Source: Brevinematia bacterium
GTDB taxonomy: Bacteria > Spirochaetota > Brevinematia > DTOW01
Reading direction: 5' to 3'
DNA length: 64,000 bases
NCBI GenBank assembly: GCA_039630355.1
Contig: JBCNVF010000019.1
Span: forward strand, 2,142 to 66,141
In this document: positions 6,203 through 64,000 of the stretch, one piece after another
Numbering within the stretch: position 1 is the stretch's first letter
How the letters are laid out: each line of letters starts with the position of its first letter
The notes under the pieces: generated by a model
The model's input: the letters and a program-made list of their open reading frames with translations, nothing else
The model's database searches: none
Told to the model about the DNA's origin: nothing
Program-made: the position numbers and the translations under genes

Positions 6203-6376
6203 AGTAAATATTCTAAAGTCTTTTTGGACTACTTATCAAGTAGGACAACAGTGAGATTCGGTTTCTACAATATCACTCTAGATTGGGTTTTAGAGTTTAT
6301 TGAGAGGTTATTTTTCCAGTCCCGATGGTAGACTACGAGAGAAATAGGGGAAAACTACTCTGTTGTGGGTTTATTT

Positions 6377-7495
6377 TTAGTTTTTGAAAAATTCGTTGAT
6401 TTTGGTGTCAACAAAGTTCTTGAACTTAGATTTGAAGTTTTCTTCGGAGAACCTTTCGGCATTTTTTCTGACATCCTTGAAGTTTATCTTTTCTTGAATT
6501 TTTTCAAACTTACTTATGGCTTCTTTAAGACTCTCTACGGTTTGCTCATGGAAAAGGATACCGGTTTTACCATCTATTACACTTTCGGTAGCTCCACCTT
6601 TACCGAAAGCTATTACTGGGGTTCCGCAAGCCATTGCCTCAACTGGCATAATTCCAAAATCTTCTTCTGCTGCAAAGATAAATGCTTTTGCTTTCTGCAT
6701 ATAGCTTTTTAATACATCATTGGGTTGGTATCCAAGGATTTCTATGTTTCTTTTACCTCTCGCTATGCTTTTGACCTTTTCAAACTCAGGACCATCTCCT
6801 ATTACTACCAATTTCCTATCTGGAAGTTTTGCAAAGGTTTCAACAACAAGAGGTATCATTTTGTAAGGCACCATTCTTGAGGCTACTAGGTAAAACTCTT
6901 CTTTATCTTCGCTAAAAGAGAAGTTTTTCGTGTCAACGGGTGGGTAGATGACCTCTGCTTCCCTAGCGTAGATTTTTCTTATTCTTCTTGCGGTATAATT
7001 GGAGTTTGCAATAAAGTAGTTGACCCTGTTTATGGTAGAGAGGTCCCATATTCTTATGTAGTGGAGAATCAGTTTTGCTAGAAAGGCTTTTAGCCCTCTT
7101 TCTAGTTTTGCTTCTTTCAGGTATTGGTGATACAGGTCCCAGGCGTAGCGAATTGGGGTATGGCAATAGCAGATATGTAATTGATAATGTCTGGTTATAA
7201 CTCCTTTGGCTACTGCGTGCGATGAAGAGATTATCACATCGTAATTTGAAAGATCAAACTGCTCTATTGCTAGGGGGAATAAAGCTAAATAGTTTCTATA
7301 CTTTTTCTGGGCAAATGGCAATTTTGAAATAAACGATTGCTGTGTTTTTTCAGGAGGAATTCCTAGTTTGTTGAGAGTTTCATTGTTGGAGATTAAGCAA
7401 AAGACGTCCGAAGGGTACAGTTCATAAATTGACTTTAGAACTCTTTCAGCTCCAGCAAATGTTACTAACCAGTCTGCAACTATTGAGAACTTCAT
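6377..7495 (-). CDS. Glycosyltransferase family 4 (GT1-fold, retaining)
   Basis: 372 aa; C-terminal E-x7-E region DFGIMPVEAMACGTPVIAF typical of GT4 (Glycos_transf_1). Confidence 0.8.
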   Translation of the reverse strand: MKFSIVADWLVTFAGAERVLKSIYELYPSDVFCLISNNETLNKLGIPPEKTQQSFISKLPFAQKKYRNYLALFPLAIEQFDLSNYDVIISSSHAVAKGVITRHYQLHICYCHTPIRYAWDLYHQYLKEAKLERGLKAFLAKLILHYIRIWDLSTINRVNYFIANSNYTARRIRKIYAREAEVIYPPVDTKNFSFSEDKEEFYLVASRMVPYKMIPLVVETFAKLPDRKLVVIGDGPEFEKVKSIARGKRNIEILGYQPNDVLKSYMQKAKAFIFAAEEDFGIMPVEAMACGTPVIAFGKGGATESVIDGKTGILFHEQTVESLKEAISKFEKIQEKINFKDVRKNAERFSEENFKSKFKNFVDTKINEFFKN

Positions 7496-7499
7496 GTTT

Positions 7500-8210
7500 T
7501 TATACCTTCACGAATGTTCCAACTTTTTCGCCTAACACTATTCTCTTTATTCCGTCTTTTTCCATTAGGTTAAAGACGATTATTGGTATTTTGCTTTCAC
7601 AGCTTAGACTAAATGCGGTTAGATCCATGACTTTAAGGTTCATTGAGAGAACTTCACTACCGCTTATTTCATCAAATTTCTTTGCATCTTTGTGTCTTTT
7701 AGGGTCTTTATCATATATTCCATCAACTTTAGTGGCTTTTAATACAACATCGGCTTCAATTTCTGCTGCTCTTAGAACTGCGGAAGTGTCTGTTGAGAAA
7801 AAGGGGTTTCCTGTGCCACCAGCGAAAATGATAATATATCCTTTGGATAGATAGTCAATTGCCTTCTCAACAGAGTATTTCTCTGCTATTCCCTCTATTG
7901 GTATTGCGGAAAGAACTACAACTTTAACTCTCTTAGAAGAGAAGTCATCTGCTAGAGTTATTGAATTAAGAATGGTTGAGATCATTCCTAGCCTATCGCT
8001 GTTAACTCTCTCAATGCCTTTTACCGCTACTTTGCTTCCTCTTATGAAGTTGCCTCCTCCAACTACTATTCCAATTTGGGTTCCTAGGGAGTAGGCCTTT
8101 ATTATCTCGTCAGTGATGTATGAGACTACCTTCATATCTATTCCTAAACCTTGTTCACCACCTAAAACTTCACCACTTATTTTAATAACAATCCTATCAA
8201 ATTTTTTCAT
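7500..8210 (-). CDS. pyrH: UMP kinase
   Basis: RIVIKISGEVL, GIVVGGGNFIRG and amino-acid kinase fold motifs; 236 aa. Not flanked by tsf or frr. Confidence 0.93.
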   Translation of the reverse strand: MKKFDRIVIKISGEVLGGEQGLGIDMKVVSYITDEIIKAYSLGTQIGIVVGGGNFIRGSKVAVKGIERVNSDRLGMISTILNSITLADDFSSKRVKVVVLSAIPIEGIAEKYSVEKAIDYLSKGYIIIFAGGTGNPFFSTDTSAVLRAAEIEADVVLKATKVDGIYDKDPKRHKDAKKFDEISGSEVLSMNLKVMDLTAFSLSCESKIPIIVFNLMEKDGIKRIVLGEKVGTFVKV

Positions 8211-8262
8211 AAATCGGGTATAATTATACTTGGGTAATGGATATCTTTACAAGTTGCTATAG

Positions 8263-8484
8263 AAGAGAGTGAATAAATTCCGATTTTGGTTTGTAACTAG
8301 GCAAGATTCTAGACTTTTTGCTTATACTCTCTTTGGTTCCACATAGCGCTTGTTTTAATCGCAAGATTTCATCTTACACCAAGCCTCTTAGGTGCTTGCT
8401 AAGGGAAGTGCTTACTTAGCTCCGACAGGGACTGCGAGAAAAATAGAGAGAAGACTACTTCTAGTTGTAAGTTTTGGACTTTAC
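8263..8484 (+). repeat. Type-1 intergenic repeat element, full copy A (about 220 bp)
   Basis: Aligns over its whole length with 13024-13224 and 51417-51636. Shared blocks: TTCCAATTTCC, AACTTTTTGCTTACTTA-CCTCTTTGTTTCTAG, CTTCACCTAA, CCTCTTATGTGCTT-AAGAAGAG, GAGAAAAATA-A-AGAA-AC. Confidence 0.8.
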
Positions 8485-8582
8485 TGACTTCAGTTAAATC
8501 TGAAGTTTGTAGCAGAGTTTGGTAAGAATTAAAGTGAAATAACCTCCTCTTGCCCTTAAAATAAAGGCAAAAGGAGGAATAT

Positions 8583-8660
8583 ATGAATAACAAAAAAACT
8601 ATAAATCGCTTCATCAAAAACTTTCTACTTAACTTTTATCCAAGCTCAGGAAGAAGATAG
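8583..8660 (+). CDS. Conserved 25-aa small ORF (MNNKKTINRFIKNFLLNFYPSSGRR) inside type-2 element; coding status unproven
   Basis: AGGAGG lies 7 nt upstream of ATG and is sequestered by the upstream anti-SD. The N-terminal 17 codons are conserved with the copy at 58157 (MN[ND]KK[TI][IV]N[RH]FIKN[FL]LL); the C-terminus is frame-shifted between the two copies. Confidence 0.25.
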   Translation: MNNKKTINRFIKNFLLNFYPSSGRR

Positions 8661-8783
8661 TAGAAGTTGTTCTTGCAATCATTCTCTCTGGAAGCTTGAG
8701 GATATCTAGGGTATCTCTCAGCAGCAGGAAGAGGGAATAGTCAAGGTATTCAGAATACTTTTTCACAAAAAAATACCAAACTC

Positions 8784-8812
8784 TTGACCAAACTTCAGGT
8801 TAAATTTATTGA
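8784..8812 (+). promoter_or_regulatory. sigma70-like promoter at 3' end of type-2 element (TTGACC-17 nt-TATTGA) reading into ftsZ
   Basis: -35 TTGACC, 17-nt spacer, -10 TATTGA. The same architecture is conserved at 58376-58404 (TTAACT-17 nt-TATTGA). Confidence 0.4.
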
Positions 8813-8872
8813 AAATCGTTTTTTATTGTTTTACAATACTTGAGTAAAGTTTTTGGGATGGGAGGGGTTTAT

Positions 8873-12935: not shown

Positions 12936-13023
12936 AGGCTTTCCTCCGGTTGTATTAGCAAAAATTATAAAAAACACCTTGAATTTGCTTCAAATTAGTC
13001 TTCAAGTAGGTGATAAATTCCAA

Positions 13024-13224
13024 TTTCCGTTAAGTGATTAGATGAGATTCAACTTTTTGCTTACTTACCCTCTTTGTTTCTAGGTAATCTTCTTCAGTTA
13101 TGAGACTTCACCTTAACCAAACCTCTTATGTGCTTATCAAGAAGAGTGTTCTCCTTCAGTTCTAGTAGGTGTTGTGAGAAAAATAAAAGAAAAACAGTGC
13201 TTAATTGTTAAGTTTTGAAATTCA
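13024..13224 (+). repeat. Type-1 intergenic repeat element, full copy B
   Basis: Collinear alignment with copies A and D (see 8263-8484). Confidence 0.8.
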
Positions 13225-13310
13225 TTGTCAAGTGAGTAGTATTTATGGGCTAAGTGAGATCCTTTTTTGTTAGTTGTGGTTGTGCTATATGAGAAATGAG
13301 TTGTGTATCT

Positions 13311-16419: not shown

Positions 16420-16494
16420 GGGCGGGCGACGGGACTCGAACCCGCAACCTCTGGAGCCACAGTCCAATGCTCTAACCATTTGAGCTACGCCCGC
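16420..16494 (-). tRNA. tRNA-His (anticodon GUG) with encoded G-1
   Basis: Reverse complement folds as a cloverleaf: acceptor GCGGGCG/CGCCCGC, D-arm GCTC-AAATGGTTA-GAGC, anticodon arm TTGGA-CTGTGGC-TCCAG (GTG at 34-36), T-arm GCGGG-TTCGAGT-CCCGT. The extra 5' G pairs with discriminator C73, which is the tRNA-His hallmark. CCA is not encoded. Confidence 0.85.
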
Positions 16495-16568
16495 CACAAG
16501 AGCTACAAGATAAGAATATTATGAATGCCTAGATTTCAATAATTCAAGAAAAAATGGTGTCTTCCAAT

Positions 16569-16650
16569 GAGTTCCAATTTCCATTAGGTAAGTAGATAAA
16601 ATTCAACTTTTTGTTTACTTACACTCTTTGCTTCTAGGCTAAGCATTTTC
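16569..16650 (+). repeat. Type-1 repeat element, 5' partial copy C
   Basis: GAGTTCCAATTTCCATTAGG...AACTTTTTGTTTACTTACACTCTTTGCTTCTAG matches the first about 90 bp of the type-1 consensus. Confidence 0.65.
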
Positions 16651-16721
16651 AGAAAGTGAGTTAGGTCTTTTTGAAACTTTGGATATCTTTTTTTATCATT
16701 AAGAGGTGGAGAGGATAAACT

Positions 16722-18602
16722 ATGAAGGCTGTTGCCATAGTTTTAGTTTTTTTGCTTTTGTTTGCCTTTACAGGTTGTGGGCTAAGACCGAAAACTTCTC
16801 CTGACGAGTCTGGTATTTCCCAACCACCGCAAGAATTAGGTGCTGTCATCTCCAATGACGGAAATGTCTATTTCTACCTTTTTGCTCCTAAGGCTAGGAG
16901 TGTAAGTATAGCAGGAAGCTTCAATGGCTGGAATAAAGACGCCAATCCTATGCAAAAGATTCTAACCACAGAAGGTGCAGTGTGGACAACCTCACTTCCT
17001 CTTTCAACGGTGTATGGTAAAGAGTATAAGTATGTAATTGATGGTAACGCTTGGGTTGCGGATCCTTACTCAAAGTATGTCTCAAGCGATGGATACGGAG
17101 GTTTCAACACAGTCCTGAGAACCAATTCACAAATATCTTGGGTTCAATTCACTCCACCAAGCCAGTCCGAGCTTATAATCTATGAACTACATGTTGAAAG
17201 TTTCACCGCAAACGATCCAACAGTTTCACAAAACAATAGAGGTAAATTTTTAGGAATTCTTGAGAAGACGAACTATCTACTTTCACTTGGGGTAAACGCT
17301 ATTGAGATAATGCCAATACATGTTCAAGAGTTCTACTCAGGCTATACATGGGGGTATAATCCTGTTTTGTTTATGGCTATACACTCTGACTACGGAACTC
17401 CAGATGAATTTAAAACTATGGTTAATGAACTTCACAAAGTTGGCATTGCGGTAATAGTTGATGTTGTTTTCAATCACACTGGAAATCAAAATAACTACCT
17501 TTGGACTATAGACAAAACCTACTACTTTGATTTTGATGGGGATGGAGTTATAGAAAATCCGGGTGATGATTCAACTCCTTGGGGAAACAAATTTGCTTTA
17601 TGGAAGCCGATGGCATTAAAACTTGTGTATGATACTCTAGAGTATTACTTAAAAGAGTTCAATGTTGATGGATTTAGGATTGACGGAACTTACGCAATGG
17701 AAGGTGGTAATCCTTACAAAAATGCAAGAACATACTTGATAAATCAGGTAATAAGTCCTCTCAGGCAGAAGTATCCAAACAAGATCTGGATAGCTGAGCA
17801 ATTACCTAACCATTCTGATTTTAAGGGGACTGGTATAGCGCAGTGGGGACAGGTTTTTCACGACAAGATGAAAGCAATGTTAAGGAGAGGAGACTTTGAA
17901 GGGGAAAGGTATGACAATGTTGGAAGGGTTGGAAGAATGATATACTACGACAAGGACGGAGGAACTTTTGCTTCTCCGGTAGAAGTGGTAAATTACTTTG
18001 AATCCCATGACGAAAACTCTGTATATACCGAGCTTGTCACTTACAGTGGGCTAAGTGTAACTGACGCAACGAATGCTTCCAAGGCTGGTGCAATAGTGCT
18101 TTTTACTTCCATGGGGATTCCAATGCTTATGGCAGGGCAGGAATTCGTAAGACCTAGGATAGGACAGAATACTAGTAAAGCCAATGGTGATATTGATTGG
18201 TCCTGGTTGATTTCAAATACGAATATATTCAACTACTACTCAGGACTTATTGAGCTTAGGAAGAATCATCCAGCTTTGAGGATAACAGATCCAGATCCCG
18301 CAAGTAAGGGGTGGTTCAAATGGGGTAACGAGTGGAACAGTGCTAACTTCAATTGGTCAGCTAGTAAACACATAGTCTATGCTCTTAACTATAATGGTAA
18401 CGTTCCTGGAGAGACCAATAGATTCGTAGTAGCTGTAAATTTCAGCACTAACGGTGTCACAATATATCCGTTCTTTGAAACAGGTGAATGGAAAATAGTT
18501 GTTGACCCAACGAACAGTAGAGGGACAACCACAACCAATATAACAAGCACAACAACTAGTTGGGAACTGCCACCAGTAAGTGGGTATATATTCATGAAAT
18601 AG
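16722..18602 (+). CDS. GH13 alpha-glucan hydrolase (pullulanase-type) lipoprotein with N-terminal CBM48-like domain
   Basis: Lipobox LLFAFTGCG; GH13 conserved regions DVVFNHTG, GFRIDGTYAM, YFESHDE. Confidence 0.8.
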   Translation: MKAVAIVLVFLLLFAFTGCGLRPKTSPDESGISQPPQELGAVISNDGNVYFYLFAPKARSVSIAGSFNGWNKDANPMQKILTTEGAVWTTSLPLSTVYGKEYKYVIDGNAWVADPYSKYVSSDGYGGFNTVLRTNSQISWVQFTPPSQSELIIYELHVESFTANDPTVSQNNRGKFLGILEKTNYLLSLGVNAIEIMPIHVQEFYSGYTWGYNPVLFMAIHSDYGTPDEFKTMVNELHKVGIAVIVDVVFNHTGNQNNYLWTIDKTYYFDFDGDGVIENPGDDSTPWGNKFALWKPMALKLVYDTLEYYLKEFNVDGFRIDGTYAMEGGNPYKNARTYLINQVISPLRQKYPNKIWIAEQLPNHSDFKGTGIAQWGQVFHDKMKAMLRRGDFEGERYDNVGRVGRMIYYDKDGGTFASPVEVVNYFESHDENSVYTELVTYSGLSVTDATNASKAGAIVLFTSMGIPMLMAGQEFVRPRIGQNTSKANGDIDWSWLISNTNIFNYYSGLIELRKNHPALRITDPDPASKGWFKWGNEWNSANFNWSASKHIVYALNYNGNVPGETNRFVVAVNFSTNGVTIYPFFETGEWKIVVDPTNSRGTTTTNITSTTTSWELPPVSGYIFMK

Positions 18603-18604
18603 GT

Positions 18605-18700
18605 TGCTTTCTCTTTCTACGTCTCTTGCAGTCCCTGTCGGGACTGGGTGAATACTTTTCTCTAACATATACTACCTAGAGTCAGAGAAAGTAAGCATAT
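18605..18700 (-). repeat. Type-1 repeat fragment F (3' portion, inverted) carrying the perfect hairpin CAGTCCC-TGTC-GGGACTG (18629-18646)
   Basis: Reverse complement aligns to the GAGAAAAATAAAAG end of type-1. Shares CTCGCAGTCCCTG-N-CGGGACTGGGTGA with 62745-62773. Confidence 0.55.
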
Positions 18701-18807
18701 GGAGGGCTAGAATTTTGTCTACTTTCTAACGAAGTTGGGTTTTTGACCTCTTATGGAATTTGATTTTAAATGGGAAGATGGACTATATTTTTATATCTGA
18801 GGTTTTT

Positions 18808-28828: not shown

Positions 28829-29214
28829 ACCTCCTTTACATTCTTTATTTTATTTATCAGGCTTAACGTTGTCAAGAAAATTTTCTCTAGAATACTATAT
28901 TTTGGGTGTTTGATCTCTTCTCTTTTGTTGATAAGTTCAAGTTTGGAAATTTTTTTGCTTTTCTGTTAATGCAGAGAGTGAGACTGTAGCAATAGGTTCT
29001 AGAGTTTAATGATTGGGTATAGTTTTTCTTTCACTTTTCTTGCATTTTCTCTCAGGATTGGGTAAAATAGTTTTCTTAGTGAAGTCCGGAGGCTGTGTAG
29101 AGTGAGATATAAAATTAGACTTTGCTGGTAAGAGGATTTCATTTTTAATATTATGGAGGGTTTGTATTAGAATTTCGTTATCGTAGAGCGAAGAAGTAAG
29201 GAGAGTATAAGACT

Positions 29215-40323: not shown

Positions 40324-40722
40324 CTACTCCGTTGACTTAACTTTTGAGTAGATCTTCTTACCTAGAACTACCTGAGGTAAAGTATGGTTATTCCCAACTT
40401 CAGAGAATAGTTTTTCAAGGTATTCTTTAGAAGTTTTGTAAATACCCTTTGTGTAATTGATGAATCCTACCTCGTAAAGAGCCCAGAAGTATGTTCTTTT
40501 TTCTTCTTCACTAGGTGTTTTAAGTTGTGAGTATTTGTTTATTATCTCTTTATATAGGATCTCCGATTCGTCTACAAGTCCTTCAGAGTAATACTTTATC
40601 GCGAGTCTGTATATTGTTGGTATATCCATTTTTTCTATCTCTTCCTTCTTTTCCCTTATTGCAGGCCCGCATCCGCAAAGTGTAAGTATGAATATAAGAA
40701 GAATTGGTAAAAGTTTTTTCAT
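40324..40722 (-). CDS. Small lipoprotein, hypothetical (TPR-like helices)
   Basis: Lipobox ILTLCGCG; 132 aa. Stop is 3 nt from the start of the downstream LbH gene (operon). Confidence 0.5.
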   Translation of the reverse strand: MKKLLPILLIFILTLCGCGPAIREKKEEIEKMDIPTIYRLAIKYYSEGLVDESEILYKEIINKYSQLKTPSEEEKRTYFWALYEVGFINYTKGIYKTSKEYLEKLFSEVGNNHTLPQVVLGKKIYSKVKSTE

Positions 40723-41067
40723 ATTTTTCTATTTTAATCAAAACGTAAGTCTTTTGGCAATTTGGGCTCTAATTGGTGGCAGTAACTTCCAAAATTTGTA
40801 GTTAGAGAATAGTTCTCTTTTCACTACTCTCACAATCTTTATCGGAGCTAGGTAAATACTTTTTCTCAACGAGCATTTGAGACTTGGCATGAAGTAGAGT
40901 TTTGTGACCGACAAACACTATCTAGAAACAAAGAGAGGAGGTAAACAAAAAGTTTAGAATTTTTTCTATCACCTAATGGAAATCGGAATTTGTTGTTGGT
41001 GAGTAGCGGTTAAGTTGAATTTTATGGGGTAGCTTGTCTAAAATTTTTAGGCTTGAAAGAGGAGTTT

Positions 41068-45021: not shown

Positions 45022-45414
45022 ACTATCACCTCTTTTCCTTAAGTTGTGATGTTTAGGATCAATTCAGATTTCCGATGGTTTGACTACTTTTTGGTTTTTG
45101 CAGTATCTATGGTTTGGTATTATATTCTTAGTTATTCCAAGTCACTTTCAATTTGAAGACTTCTGAGATCAATAGATTCTAACTCTCGTTAGGTAAATAA
45201 GGGGTGTTGTTGGTGTGTTATGGTTATGTTTTCTTATTTAGCTCTGGGAATGCAAAGTGAGGAGAGTTTTAGGAATTTTTCTCAGGAGATGATTTTGATA
45301 GCTTACAAGTATTTAGAAGTAGTGACAGAGGACTTGTGGGGTAGTCAATTAGAGAAATCTGTTTTAGGCTCATTTTCTAGCGACTTGAAATAACTGAGGA
45401 TGTTTGGTTAAAAT

Positions 45415-51350: not shown

Positions 51351-51416
51351 TCACCTCTTAAAAATTATAAATGAGTTTAGTTTAAATGTTCAATCAAGAC
51401 TATAAATAACTGCCTG

Positions 51417-51636
51417 ATAAGTTCCAATTTCCATTACTTCCACTAGGTGAGAAAGCAAGATTCCGAACTTTTCGCTTACTTAACCTCTTTGTTTCTAGAT
51501 AGTCTTCTTGAGTTACAAAGCTTCACCTAAATCGAGCTTCTTATGTGCTTGTTAAGAAGAGTATTCCTTTGGTCCAGATGGGTATTGCAAGGGAAATAAA
51601 AGAAAGACATGCCTGATTGTTGAATTTTAGAATTCA
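51417..51636 (+). repeat. Type-1 intergenic repeat element, full copy D
   Basis: Collinear with copies A and B; about 75-80% identity. Confidence 0.8.
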
Positions 51637-51710
51637 TCGGCATTGTAGTTAATTAACTTGAATCGGTATTTGGGGTTTTTGTATTATTTTTAGCATTCTG
51701 GAGGTGTTTT

Positions 51711-55105: not shown

Positions 55106-55286
55106 ACATTTTCACCTTTCTTGCTTATTATAAACTTAGTTTCCACAGATTCTCAAGTTAAGAATTGTAATCAACAGTAAATTCCAAAATTTGGAGATTT
55201 GCAAATTATATATTTGTTGTAAAGGTTTTGAAATAGTTGAAAAAGTTTAGTTTTTACATTTAATCTAAGTGTATCCTTAAGGGGAG

Positions 55287-58061: not shown

Positions 58062-58410
58062 AGAAGAGATAGAGCAAGTTTGTAGGAGAGTTTGGTGAAA
58101 ATTAAAGTGAAAGGACTTCCTCTTACCTTGTAAGATAAAAGCAAGAGGAGGAATGTATGAATGACAAGAAAATTGTAAATCACTTTATCAAAAACCTTCT
58201 ACTTGACCTTCCATCCAAACTCAGGAAGAAGATAGCGAAAGTTGTTCTCTTACATTCTTCTACCTTTAGGTAAGGCAGGTATGCTAGGGTTAGGAGGGGA
58301 AGGTTTGAGGATTGCTTGGATGAGTTATGAACACGGGGTATTCAGAATACTTTCTCACAAAAAAGTACCAAACTCTTAACTAAGCTTCAGTTAAAAAATA
58401 TTGAAATTTC
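58062..58410 (+). repeat. Type-2 composite leader element, copy 2, upstream of ABC permease gene
   Basis: Collinear with 8503-8826. Anti-SD CTTCCTCTTAC paired with GCAAGAGGAGG (compensatory change relative to copy 1); small ORF 58157-58273; promoter TTAACT-17-TATTGA at 58376-58404. Confidence 0.8.
58157..58273 (+). CDS. Conserved small ORF, copy 2 (38 aa: MNDKKIVNHFIKNLLLDLPSKLRKKIAKVVLLHSSTFR); coding status unproven
   Basis: Same AGGAGG-N7-ATG context and sequestering hairpin as 8583-8660; cationic amphipathic peptide. Confidence 0.25.
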   Translation: MNDKKIVNHFIKNLLLDLPSKLRKKIAKVVLLHSSTFR

Positions 58411-58457
58411 ATGTTTAAACCTTTTTAATTATATCTAGCAGATGCGGAGGTATTGGT

Positions 58458-62602: not shown

Positions 62603-62729
62603 AAGGCTACCTCCTAGAAAAAATACAAAAGTAGTATAGATTTTTCAAGGCTAAAATGTTATATGGTAGTTTTCTGTTTTTTCCACTTAAGAGTATAGAT
62701 GTGGTAAGTTCCAAGGTTTGGTAGTTGGG

Positions 62730-62830
62730 AATGGTTTTTCTTTTTTCTCGCAGTCCCTGACGGGACTGGGTGAGTGGTTTCTTATGAATACTTTCTCGGT
62801 AGGTTTAGTGGGCTTGATGGAGAGTGGTTT
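62730..62830 (-). repeat. Type-1 repeat fragment G (3' portion, inverted on + strand; forward relative to leuC) with hairpin CAGTCCC-TGAC-GGGACTG (62751-62768)
   Basis: TTTTTCTCGCAGTCCCTGACGGGACTGGGTGAGTGG matches 18618-18652 and the reverse complement of 8440-8470. Confidence 0.55.
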
Positions 62831-62978
62831 TTGTGGTTGGAGGGGGTGTAAAGGGTTTGAGAGTTTGTTTACTTGTCTAGTGGGAGTTAGGGTTTGTTAT
62901 CTAAACTACTGGGTGTACCTTTTATTTTTGGGTTTTTCAACTTGCTGTTTAGTCAAGGTGGGGGGTGGGGTCTTGGGG

Positions 62979-63617
62979 TTATGTTCCTAGGAAGTCTTTC
63001 AGTTTTTCCATTGTTATGGGCTTATCTTTCGTTGAGAGCAATCTCTCAATGTATTTTCCTATTATGTCAAACTCAATGTTTACATACTCTTCTGGCTTGA
63101 GGTATTTTATGTTTGTGTTTTCGTAGGTGTGAGGTATGACTGCTACTGAGAAAGTTCTAAGTGAATCGTTTATTTCTGATATGGTTAGACTTATTCCGTC
63201 TACTGCTACTGAACCTTTGTAAACTAAGTTTTTCATGAAGTTCTTGGGGATGGATATTGTAAGTTTGTATGAATTTCCGATGGGTATTATTTCGTTTACT
63301 TGTCCTATGGTGTCAATGTGTCCTAGAACTATGTGACCGTCAAGAAAACTTGAGGGGGTTGATGGGAGTTCTAGGTTTACTACTGTGTCTGGTTTGAGTT
63401 TAGGGATGGTGCTTTTTTCTGAGGTTTCGCTACTTACGAAGAAAGTGAGTTCATCTGGTGTTTTTCTGATAACGGTTAGGCATGCGCCATTTACTGCTAC
63501 GCTACCGCCAATTTCTACAACTTTAGAGACTTCCGGAGTTTTTATGGTTATCTCGCCATCGGTTTTGTTAAGGGATCTAACAATGATTCCTGTGTATTTT
63601 ATTATACCTGAGAACAT
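62979..63617 (-). CDS. ribE: Riboflavin synthase alpha subunit (start at MFSGII; ORF extends to 63653)
   Basis: MFSGIIKYTGII...GGSVAVNGACLTV and second lumazine-binding repeat GSVAVDGISLTI. Confidence 0.88.
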   Translation of the reverse strand: MFSGIIKYTGIIVRSLNKTDGEITIKTPEVSKVVEIGGSVAVNGACLTVIRKTPDELTFFVSSETSEKSTIPKLKPDTVVNLELPSTPSSFLDGHIVLGHIDTIGQVNEIIPIGNSYKLTISIPKNFMKNLVYKGSVAVDGISLTISEINDSLRTFSVAVIPHTYENTNIKYLKPEEYVNIEFDIIGKYIERLLSTKDKPITMEKLKDFLGT

Positions 63618-63706: not shown

Positions 63707-63756
63707 CTGCATATCTCTCGTAAGAAATAAACTTACCTTCATCGCTTCTCATTCTT

Positions 63757-64000
63757 GTTTCAATCCCTAAAAGGACAGGTAAAAACAATAATGGAAGTGA
63801 AGAAATATGACAAAAAACAAGCGTTGTTTCAATCCCTAAAAGGGCAGGTAAAAACAAAAACCTCCGAAGAAGGTAAGGATTGCTGTTCAAAGTTTCAATC
63901 CCTAAAAGGGCAGGTAAAAACTTCTCGGTTTGTTTCATTTCTTGTTGCTTTATTTTCAGGTTTCAATCCCTAAAAGGGTAGGTAAAAACAATAAAGGGGT
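63757..64000 (-). CRISPR. CRISPR array (4 repeats in window, runs off the window end). Repeat GTTTCAATCCCTAAAAGG[AG]CAGGTAAAAAC, 30 bp; spacers of 39, 36 and 38 bp.
   Basis: Repeats at 63757-63786, 63826-63855, 63892-63921 and 63960-63989, with unique spacers. Minus-strand reading ends ...ATTGAAAC (canonical 8-nt 5'-handle source), so crRNA transcription is probably right-to-left with the leader beyond 64000. Confidence 0.9.

Follow-up and report, generated by a model that had tools for sequence, protein, structure and literature searches.

A dispersed intergenic repeat of a Brevinematia genome with ends in fixed register to neighboring promoters

Introduction

The Correia elements (CREE/NEMIS) of Neisseria are 100-160 bp long, supply -35 and -10 promoter hexamers from their ends, and duplicate a TA target. 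Here we describe the type-1 repeat, a family found in a 64-kb stretch (hereafter, the window) of a contig from a Brevinematia metagenome-assembled genome (MAG), which resembles the Correia elements in being small (~220 bp), non-coding, abundant, intergenic, bounded by inverted repeats, and linked to promoters at its ends. It differs from them in that the two share no sequence similarity, the candidate target duplication is 6 bp, and the promoter hexamers are not part of the repeat but follow 17-19 bp past its end. This fixed register of element ends to promoters is the most informative feature of the family, and was absent from the original prediction of the repeat.

Type-1 shares its size range, multicopy intergenic occurrence, mosaic make-up with partial copies, and restriction to a lineage with the ERIC/IRU, RUP, BOX, bcr1, and RPE families, although it has no sequence relation to any of them, and searches with type-1 of Rfam and of phage and plasmid DNA were empty. 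We know of no description of these families in a fixed base-pair register to flanking -35 hexamers. In kind, type-1 is closest to the bacterial families of miniature inverted-repeat transposable elements (MITEs) and dispersed repeats, namely Correia, ERIC, RUP, and BOX. The REP/BIME class is excluded: REP/BIME units are single imperfect palindromes of 20-40 bp, usually clustered downstream of genes, whereas type-1 is a single, mostly promoter-proximal unit of ~220 bp whose sole strong palindrome (18 bp) is internal and missing from many copies.

The canonical UP element abuts the -35 hexamer, at -40 to -60. Like UP elements, class I activator sites, and Fis sites, the terminal box of type-1 is A/T-rich and located upstream of the -35 hexamer at strongly expressed housekeeping promoters, and its center near -62 matches the class I position. 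Unlike an UP element, it extends from about -72 to -54, is separated from the -35 hexamer by an unconserved gap of 17-19 bp, and is also the terminus of a repeat. By definition it is not an UP element, as the block does not lie directly upstream of the -35 hexamer, but by analogy it may act similarly. In the hybrid promoters formed by insertion sequences (IS), the end of the IS supplies a -35 hexamer 17 bp from a resident -10; type-1 is comparable in that the end of a mobile element stands in fixed geometry to a resident promoter element, yet a complete resident -35/-10 pair lies beyond the type-1 end, and the TTGGAA within the box is ~30 bp away from that -35.

Materials and methods

The window has a G+C content of 37.8%, and its + strand carries a strong G-over-C skew of 0.1-0.29 along the whole length. 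Its amylase-family protein is 100% identical to NCBI MEN2997729.1, annotated as coming from a Brevinematia MAG, whereas no database entry matching its FabI protein exactly was found. The nearest genomes besides its own are uncultured Brevinematia/Spirochaetia MAGs and Logan assemblies, with protein identities to the window of 78-91% (the top values being 84% for the amylase, 85% for FtsZ, and 91% for S2); in the genome collection, the relatives among the matches listed for FtsZ reach at most 57% identity. Loci around the amylase, ftsZ, and rpsB orthologs were taken from ~7 related genomes, ~230 kb in all; the contigs of these loci that are named below carry an L prefix. A literature search on the lineage gave nothing relevant. 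Copies were sought with an nhmmer profile built from the three full copies reported in the original prediction, then with iterated and broadened profiles and a box scan, and were cross-checked by blastn of all intergenic gaps against each other. The box scan covered four genomes (the window and relatives) with a cut-off of 13.5 bits. Gaps between box and promoter were counted from the last box base to the first base of the -35 hexamer. Covariation was counted over nine sequences for three candidate helices: the paired termini, CTTCTTA/TAAGAAG, and CAGTCCC/GGGACTG.

Results and discussion

Register between the repeat ends and host promoters

When the termini of the type-1 copies (A-K; Table 1) are aligned outward, both ends carry the box core TTGGAATTTAYYR, which extends at the 3' end to the 19-mer CAAATTTTGGAATTTACTG; at the 5' end, the reverse complement of the box reads GGAAATTGGAATTTATCA. 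The box comprises two A/T tracts about one helical turn apart. Of the 20 boxes at or above the cut-off, 12 have a sigma70-like promoter match that begins 17-19 nt beyond the box, compared with 1.1% of random intergenic positions (binomial P = 3e-19). Seven of the ten loose box matches with a strong promoter within 60 nt also have it at 17-19 nt, and the other three, at 30, 43, and 46 nt, are noise. The 3' box of copy A, which is separated from the ftsZ promoter by a different repeat (type-2, described below), would be ~16-17 nt from that promoter if the intervening element were removed. The distance between the -35 and -10 hexamers, frequently 18 nt, does not set these promoters apart as a special class, as other intergenic promoters of the window also favor 18 nt.

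The gaps between box and promoter, together with the promoter spacers, are non-homologous between copies (mean identity 27%, against 27% after shuffling), whereas the bodies of full copies are 64-78% identical in their core. The flanking promoters are thus excluded as part of the repeat unit, and the comparison argues that they belong to the host genes and that the repeat ends precisely at the box. The same separation is apparent between species. In the closest relative (SRR7039830), the 19-mer occurs 68 nt upstream of the rpsB start codon, where it is identical to the terminus of copy D at 18 of 19 positions and to the box of copy K at all 19. Conservation of the box is not shared by the DNA around it; the 184 nt that precede the box hold at best a very diverged element body. 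Both this rpsB gene and the one in the window have a type-1 sequence upstream, in opposite orientations, and while the two S2 proteins are 91% identical, the spacers upstream of the genes match at only 9 of 17 positions (hand count).

Several of the box-linked promoters leave just 6-12 nt from the -10 hexamer to the ATG (Table 1), and this short distance suggests leaderless or near-leaderless mRNAs in this lineage. Compared by eye with the 16S rRNA 3' end, sigma54 promoters, and the Fur, CodY, and ARG boxes, the terminal box fits none in spacing or sequence.

Copies of the repeat in the window

The original prediction of an intergenic family with six or more copies is borne out: nhmmer recovered all six reported members, with A, B, and C at E-values of 1e-64 to 1e-69, and the total rises to 11 with a full copy that had been missed (D) and with H, I, J, and K. 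Four of the 11 are full, two are full-length and badly decayed, and five are partial; complete copies are 215-241 bp long, and all copies together amount to ~1.9 kb (~3% of the window). Every copy is intergenic relative to long open reading frames (ORFs), the copies occupy 10 of the 19 intergenic gaps of at least 100 bp, and about one third of the intergenic spaces are filled by the repeat. The blastn network of gaps agrees with nhmmer. Copy E had rightly been described as a 5' part, whereas F and G, which had been taken for 3' fragments, proved to be internally deleted and 3'-truncated in the first case and full-length in the second. In copy J only the 5' end, CAATAGATTCTAACTCTCGTTAGGTAA, is recognizable.

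Six copies lie on the + strand and five on the - strand. Within the window their contexts are divergent or tandem, and a copy in a relative (L081) adds a convergent one. The earlier observation that four of six copies point in the direction of the next downstream gene is uninformative, since a divergent region satisfies any orientation and the five tandem contexts split 3:2. Because core identity between full copies is only 64-78%, the copies are old and do not record a recent burst.

Table 1. Type-1 copies, their terminal boxes and facing promoters, and other features named in the text. Positions are those of the window unless a contig is given.
Feature	Position	Strand	Gap to -35 (nt)	Promoter and gene faced	Remarks
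Copy A	8266-8497	+			full; nhmmer E ~1e-59 to 1e-64
Copy A 5' box	8271-8283	-	17-18	TTGTAA-18-TATAAT (8252..8223), pyrH-like
Copy A 3' box	8468-8486			ftsZ promoter (8809..8837)	type-2 element inserted 7 nt beyond, before the promoter
Copy B	13006-13238	+			full; candidate flanking 6-bp direct repeat TCAAGT
Copy B 5' box	13011-13023	-	17	TTGAAG-18-TATAAT (12993..12964), rpsB
Copy B 3' box	13209-13227			no promoter	faces gene 3' end
Copy C	51410-51650	+			full; between divergent promoters
Copy C 5' box	51415-51427	-	21	TTGAAC-18-TATAAT (51393..51364), small ORF ahead of HslU/ClpX-like ATPase gene
Copy C 3' box	51621-51639		18	TTGAAT-18-TATTAT (51658..51687), fabI
Copy D	40769-41000	-			full; between divergent promoters; nhmmer E = 2e-62; candidate flanking 6-bp direct repeat CACCAA
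Copy D 5' box	40983-40995	+	19	(41015..41044), rpsM
Copy D 3' box	40780-40798		19	TTGCCA-18-TAAAAT (40760..40731), unknown 132-aa protein
Copy E	16561-16658	+			5' part only
Copy E 5' box	16565-16577	-	17	TTGAAT-18-CATAAT, tRNA-His (16420-16494, -)
Copy F	18609-18752	-			~45 bp internal deletion, 3' end truncated; between amylase gene and secA
Copy F hairpin	18628-18646	-			perfect, CAGTCCCGACAGGGACTG
Copy G	62691-62904	-			full-length, heavily decayed; E = 4e-26 with broadened profile; upstream of aconitase-family (leuC-like) gene
Copy G hairpin	62750-62768	-			kept, CAGTCCCGTCAGGGACTG
Copy H	28981-29133	-			internally deleted; both ends present
Copy H 5' box	29115-29127	+	17	TTAATA-17-TAGAAT, mnmE
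Copy I	6272-6381	+			diverged 3' part; between two tandem - strand genes; E = 1.6e-4
Copy J	45167-45285	+			very diverged, G/T-rich; extent uncertain; E = 5e-4 against a small database
Copy J 5' box	45170-45182	-	18	TTGAAA-16-AAGAAT, lpxC
Copy K	55175-55193	-	18	TTGAGA-18-TATAAT (55156..55127), rplM	solo or strongly reduced; perfect 19-nt 3' box
Hairpin match	8417-8435	+
Hairpin match	2885-2903	-
Related copy L081	L081:8224-8437				between ruvX and HD-domain gene, convergent genes
Related copy L089	L089:13868-14064				between FecCD-family gene and bamA
L089 3' box			18	bamA
L099 box	L099:180-198		17	rpsB	19-mer
L085 boxes	both contig ends		17 and 17	two amylase-family genes
L087 box			17	lytic transglycosylase
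Type-1 terminus at contig end	L085:1-47
Type-1 terminus at contig end	L085:10154-10174
Type-1 terminus at contig end	L099:1-198
Short -10 to ATG distance	40722-40760	-
Short -10 to ATG distance	8210-8252	-
Short -10 to ATG distance	L085:10100-10140	-
Amylase-family gene	16722-18602
ORF antisense to copy G	62718-62990	+			90 codons
Type-2 copies	8494-8830; 58076-58417				~310-340 bp
CRISPR array	63752-63997				runs off the window end

A non-coding element that is probably not an RNA family

Of the two readings offered by the original prediction, a MITE-like element fits the features of the repeat, and a family of structured small RNAs or leaders is unsupported. Stops occur in all six frames of type-1, no frame is common to the copies, and neither a conserved internal promoter nor a terminator was found. 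On the antisense strand of the decayed copy G, no stop interrupts an ORF of 90 codons in which Gly, Phe, Leu, and Val abound; it is probably no gene but a consequence of the G/T-rich composition.

Transcription of a structured small RNA or 5' leader from each copy appears very improbable. In its favor, A, C, and D retain the hairpin CTTCTTA...TAAGAAG through one or two compensatory changes, and where only one side of CAGTCCC/GGGACTG has changed, the result on the sense strand is in most cases a G-U pair. Nevertheless, no Rfam family could be assigned to type-1: a scan of the whole window at the gathering score returned tRNA-His only, and scans of copies A, C, and D by E-value gave chance-level matches only. 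Folding energies of seven copies, on both strands, were no better than those of dinucleotide shuffles (z from -2.3 to +1.6, 9 of 14 positive), the single low value being that of copy G, where one perfect hairpin stands out in G-poor sequence. The RNAalifold covariation term was unfavorable (+4.0), the three candidate helices had 75.2% paired cells against 74.9% in shuffles, and the number of double changes observed in them was reached by 374 of 500 shuffles, showing no excess. Orientation relative to genes is random, and the second hairpin is absent from both copies found in related genomes.

The internal 18-bp hairpin CAGTCCCG(A/T)CAGGGACTG, which has a 7-bp stem, is perfect in F and G despite a content of 9% G in the body of G. 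Copies B, C, D, and H carry a degraded form, and neither related-genome copy has it. The hairpin has four matches in the window (in F and G, at 8417-8435, and at 2885-2903), where shuffles lead to an expectation of none. A look-alike with compensatory changes, CAGTGCCGATAGGCACTG, lies within a 725-aa ORF.

Public collections yielded no counterpart. The exact degenerate pattern of the best-conserved block had no match in GTDB representative genomes or JGI metagenomes; a looser version gave three metagenome matches, attributed to chance, and none in viral contigs. The hairpin pattern likewise had no match in viral contigs, nor did blastn of copy C against phages and plasmids return any.

Probable mobility, multiplication, and decay

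In its size and lack of coding capacity, type-1 agrees with the definition of a MITE (less than ~600 bp, non-coding), as it does in its dispersed copies at unrelated loci and in both orientations. The imperfect terminal inverted repeat noted in the original prediction is real, with the consensus CAATGAAnTTCCAA: its arms are CAATGAgTTCCAA at the 5' end and, in reverse complement, CAaTGAAtTTCAA at the 3' end, the core TTGGAATTTA occurs at both ends of A-D, and the repeat spans 13-22 nt, with the best case (16 of 22) in the related-genome copy L089. For a MITE, these inverted repeats are weak. Exact 6-bp direct repeats abut the ends of two of the four full window copies (B and D) and are candidates for the target-site duplication of a MITE; A, C, G, L081, and L089 show no such repeat. 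Loss of such duplications by decay is to be expected, since the copies are old.

Among the relatives, the full-length profile clearly finds two copies only, both in the species of GCA_025061835.1 (L081 and L089) and at loci that correspond to no site in the window. That species thus has two full-length copies in ~64 kb, with none in L097, against the 11 copies of the window. In ~100 kb of other relatives, the same profile gives only a marginal match (L099, E ~0.03-0.06), and four element ends are present (both contig ends of L085, L087, and L099). Window copies are 64-78% alike in the core, compared with 40-56% to the related-genome copies (in an alignment that includes flanks), and because they are closer to each other than to those copies, the comparison indicates that type-1 multiplied within each lineage. 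An apparent orthologous copy upstream of pyrH, at the end of contig L086, was rejected: despite a likeness by eye, it has no nhmmer support, and its alignment, compared with shuffles, gave P of 0.03 against two copies and no significance against the other five.

Logan contigs of the closest relative end within or beside type-1 termini (Table 1): both ends of L085 and the start of L099 lie within 30-185 nt of a box, as if type-1 were multicopy in that relative as well and broke its assemblies. Gene order between the window and contigs L081-L099 is almost wholly scrambled (protein identities 78-91%), being kept only in a glycosyltransferase-pyrH pair and a run of rpsB, Cu-oxidase_4, and radical-SAM genes. 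Synteny breaks occur at the repeat junctions that could be compared: upstream of ftsZ (A), upstream of rpsB (B), on both sides of the amylase gene (E and F), and downstream of the glycosyltransferase gene (I).

Decay has a direction. Copies G, H, I, J, and K have a + strand G-C skew of 0.37-0.59 regardless of the way they point, and A-D one of only 0.02-0.11; the sense strand of G, for example, is 39% A, 35% C, and 9% G. As the skew is high in old copies of either orientation, the decayed repeats record a mutational strand bias: they have drifted to the bias of the leading strand, and the body decays neutrally. Conservation along the element is nonetheless uneven (permutation P = 0.0005), with the 5' 100 bp better kept than the 3' end and, in the 5' third, the block AACTTTTTGYTTAC...CTCTTTGYTTCTAG better kept than the 3' half. 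This block fits either a constraint on the lineage of source copies or some function.

A well-kept 5' block and a hairpin retained in decayed copies could also be accommodated if type-1 were not a transposon but a host cis-regulatory module, that is, a back-to-back promoter region bounded by two inverted sites for a regulator or nucleoid protein, dispersed through duplication or recombination and then retained by selection. Boxes at about -62 from the starts of ribosomal protein, tRNA, and other housekeeping promoters agree with this, as does the location of A, C, D, E, and H in divergent promoter regions, C and D having a promoter 18-21 nt from each of their two boxes. We regard such a module as quite unlikely, because some copies have nothing to regulate (L081 between convergent genes, and the 3' end of B), decay brings the bodies to the mutational skew, some members are truncated or internally deleted, related genomes differ strongly in abundance, and none of the copies is at an orthologous position. 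Moreover, we know of no route that would disperse a 220-bp module to unrelated loci without transposition.

Origin of the fixed register

The register could have three sources: constraint, selection, or the mechanism of insertion. Constraint alone is rejected. Insertions such as C and D would be forced midway between -35 hexamers ~31-33 bp apart, but the same spacing holds in tandem contexts with one side free (the 5' box of B, L087, and the 3' box of L089). Either selection on the ends or insertion in register with promoters could be responsible.

The explanation we favor, and hold to be somewhat likelier right than wrong, is a lineage-specific MITE-like element of 215-235 bp, mostly old and decaying, whose ends were kept as upstream promoter elements. 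Type-1 would have been moved in trans by a transposase recognizing the inverted termini, with a target duplication of ~6 bp, and would have multiplied in the intergenic DNA of this Brevinematia lineage, where it is now mostly decaying. The body would be free of selection, and the terminal box, centered near -62 relative to the start of transcription, would serve as a putative upstream promoter element, through binding of an activator or nucleoid protein or through curvature of the phased A/T tracts. Since the box would aid the promoter, in-register copies and solo boxes would have been retained at rpsB, rpsM, rplM, tRNA-His, pyrH, fabI, lpxC, mnmE, and ftsZ. Selection is supported by the reduced copy K, which keeps a perfect 19-mer beside rplM, by the same 19-mer in another species, and by the nature of the linked genes, which are those with typical strong housekeeping promoters, with the box centered near -62.

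Alternatively, for the same mobile element, the register may derive from an insertion mechanism that picks its target at a set distance ahead of either a -35 hexamer or RNA polymerase bound at the promoter, in which case the box would be no more than the end bound by the transposase. Docking at polymerase III or II promoters is a property of some eukaryotic retroelements. The spacing is very tight (seven gaps of 17 nt, three of 18, two of 19, and one of 21) and holds in the tandem contexts above, which lack a second limiting promoter; the opposite orientations of the sequences upstream of rpsB in the window and in L099 resemble repeated hits on a preferred target, and the spacers of C and D sum to an original -35 to -35 distance of ~31-33 bp, as if insertion had occurred near the middle. 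We still judge this mechanism unlikely: copy K keeps its perfect 19-mer near rplM without a recognizable body, which resembles selection on the box, the 17-19 nt spacers share no sequence usable as a target motif, and the L081 copy lies between convergent genes with a promoter at neither end. A broader possibility, which we put forward tentatively and consider on balance doubtful, is that of a mobile cis-regulatory module docking in exact register with sigma70-type promoters, either because its termini bind, at about -62, a putative activator or nucleoid protein or because transposition reads promoter geometry.

Several observations weigh against a MITE-like element with ends retained for promoter function. 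With regard to mobility, flanking repeats occur in only two of seven complete copies and are short, neither the window nor the ~230 kb of related loci yielded a transposase with matching ends, and gene order differs from that of the relatives at every type-1 site, so that no orthologous empty site could be shown. With regard to the box, its functional reading is drawn from position and conservation; some promoter-facing boxes are poorly conserved (13 of 19 positions at the 3' end of C), and others face no promoter (the 3' boxes of B and G, and both ends of L081). The box scoring matrix was built from the termini that were later scored, and promoters had no role in choosing those termini. Finally, a simple neutral body does not predict uneven conservation, and the hairpin CAGTCCCGNCAGGGACTG remains perfect in the otherwise decayed copies F and G.

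Other repeats in the window

The statement in the original prediction that copy A adjoins a second, type-2 element is correct. The first type-2 copy is inserted just past the 3' box of copy A, splitting it from the ftsZ promoter, and is 74% identical to the second over 344 nt. Type-2 has terminal inverted repeats of 31 nt (TTAAATCTGAAGTTTG... and ...CAAACTTCAGGTTAAA). It also contains an internal 16-bp hairpin that leads into a stretch of T on the - strand, as well as a 25-codon ORF with a Shine-Dalgarno sequence. A CRISPR (clustered regularly interspaced short palindromic repeats) array at the end of the window has at least four copies of the 30-nt repeat GTTTCAATCCCTAAAAGGGCAGGTAAAAAC, with a period of 66-69 nt.

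Conclusions

One more dispersed intergenic repeat in an uncultured spirochaete is routine; the unusual part is the register of 17-19 bp with unrelated intervening DNA. To our knowledge, a base-pair register of repeat ends with host promoters, here across four genomes, has not been described before. The repeat probably accounts for assemblies of these genomes breaking upstream of housekeeping genes, and the rule of a box followed after 17-19 nt by a -35 hexamer is a simple, testable handle for promoter annotation in Brevinematia, whichever origin of the register is correct. Should the insertion mechanism be the source of the register, type-1 would represent promoter-targeted transposition in bacteria. 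If the box is a promoter element, type-1 would offer a clear example, in bacteria, of a regulatory site carried across housekeeping promoters by a mobile element, and would point to an unknown regulator in a lineage without genetics. Were type-1 in fact a docking mobile module, the promoters for ribosomal proteins, tRNA, cell division, and lipid synthesis would be wired to one shared upstream signal.

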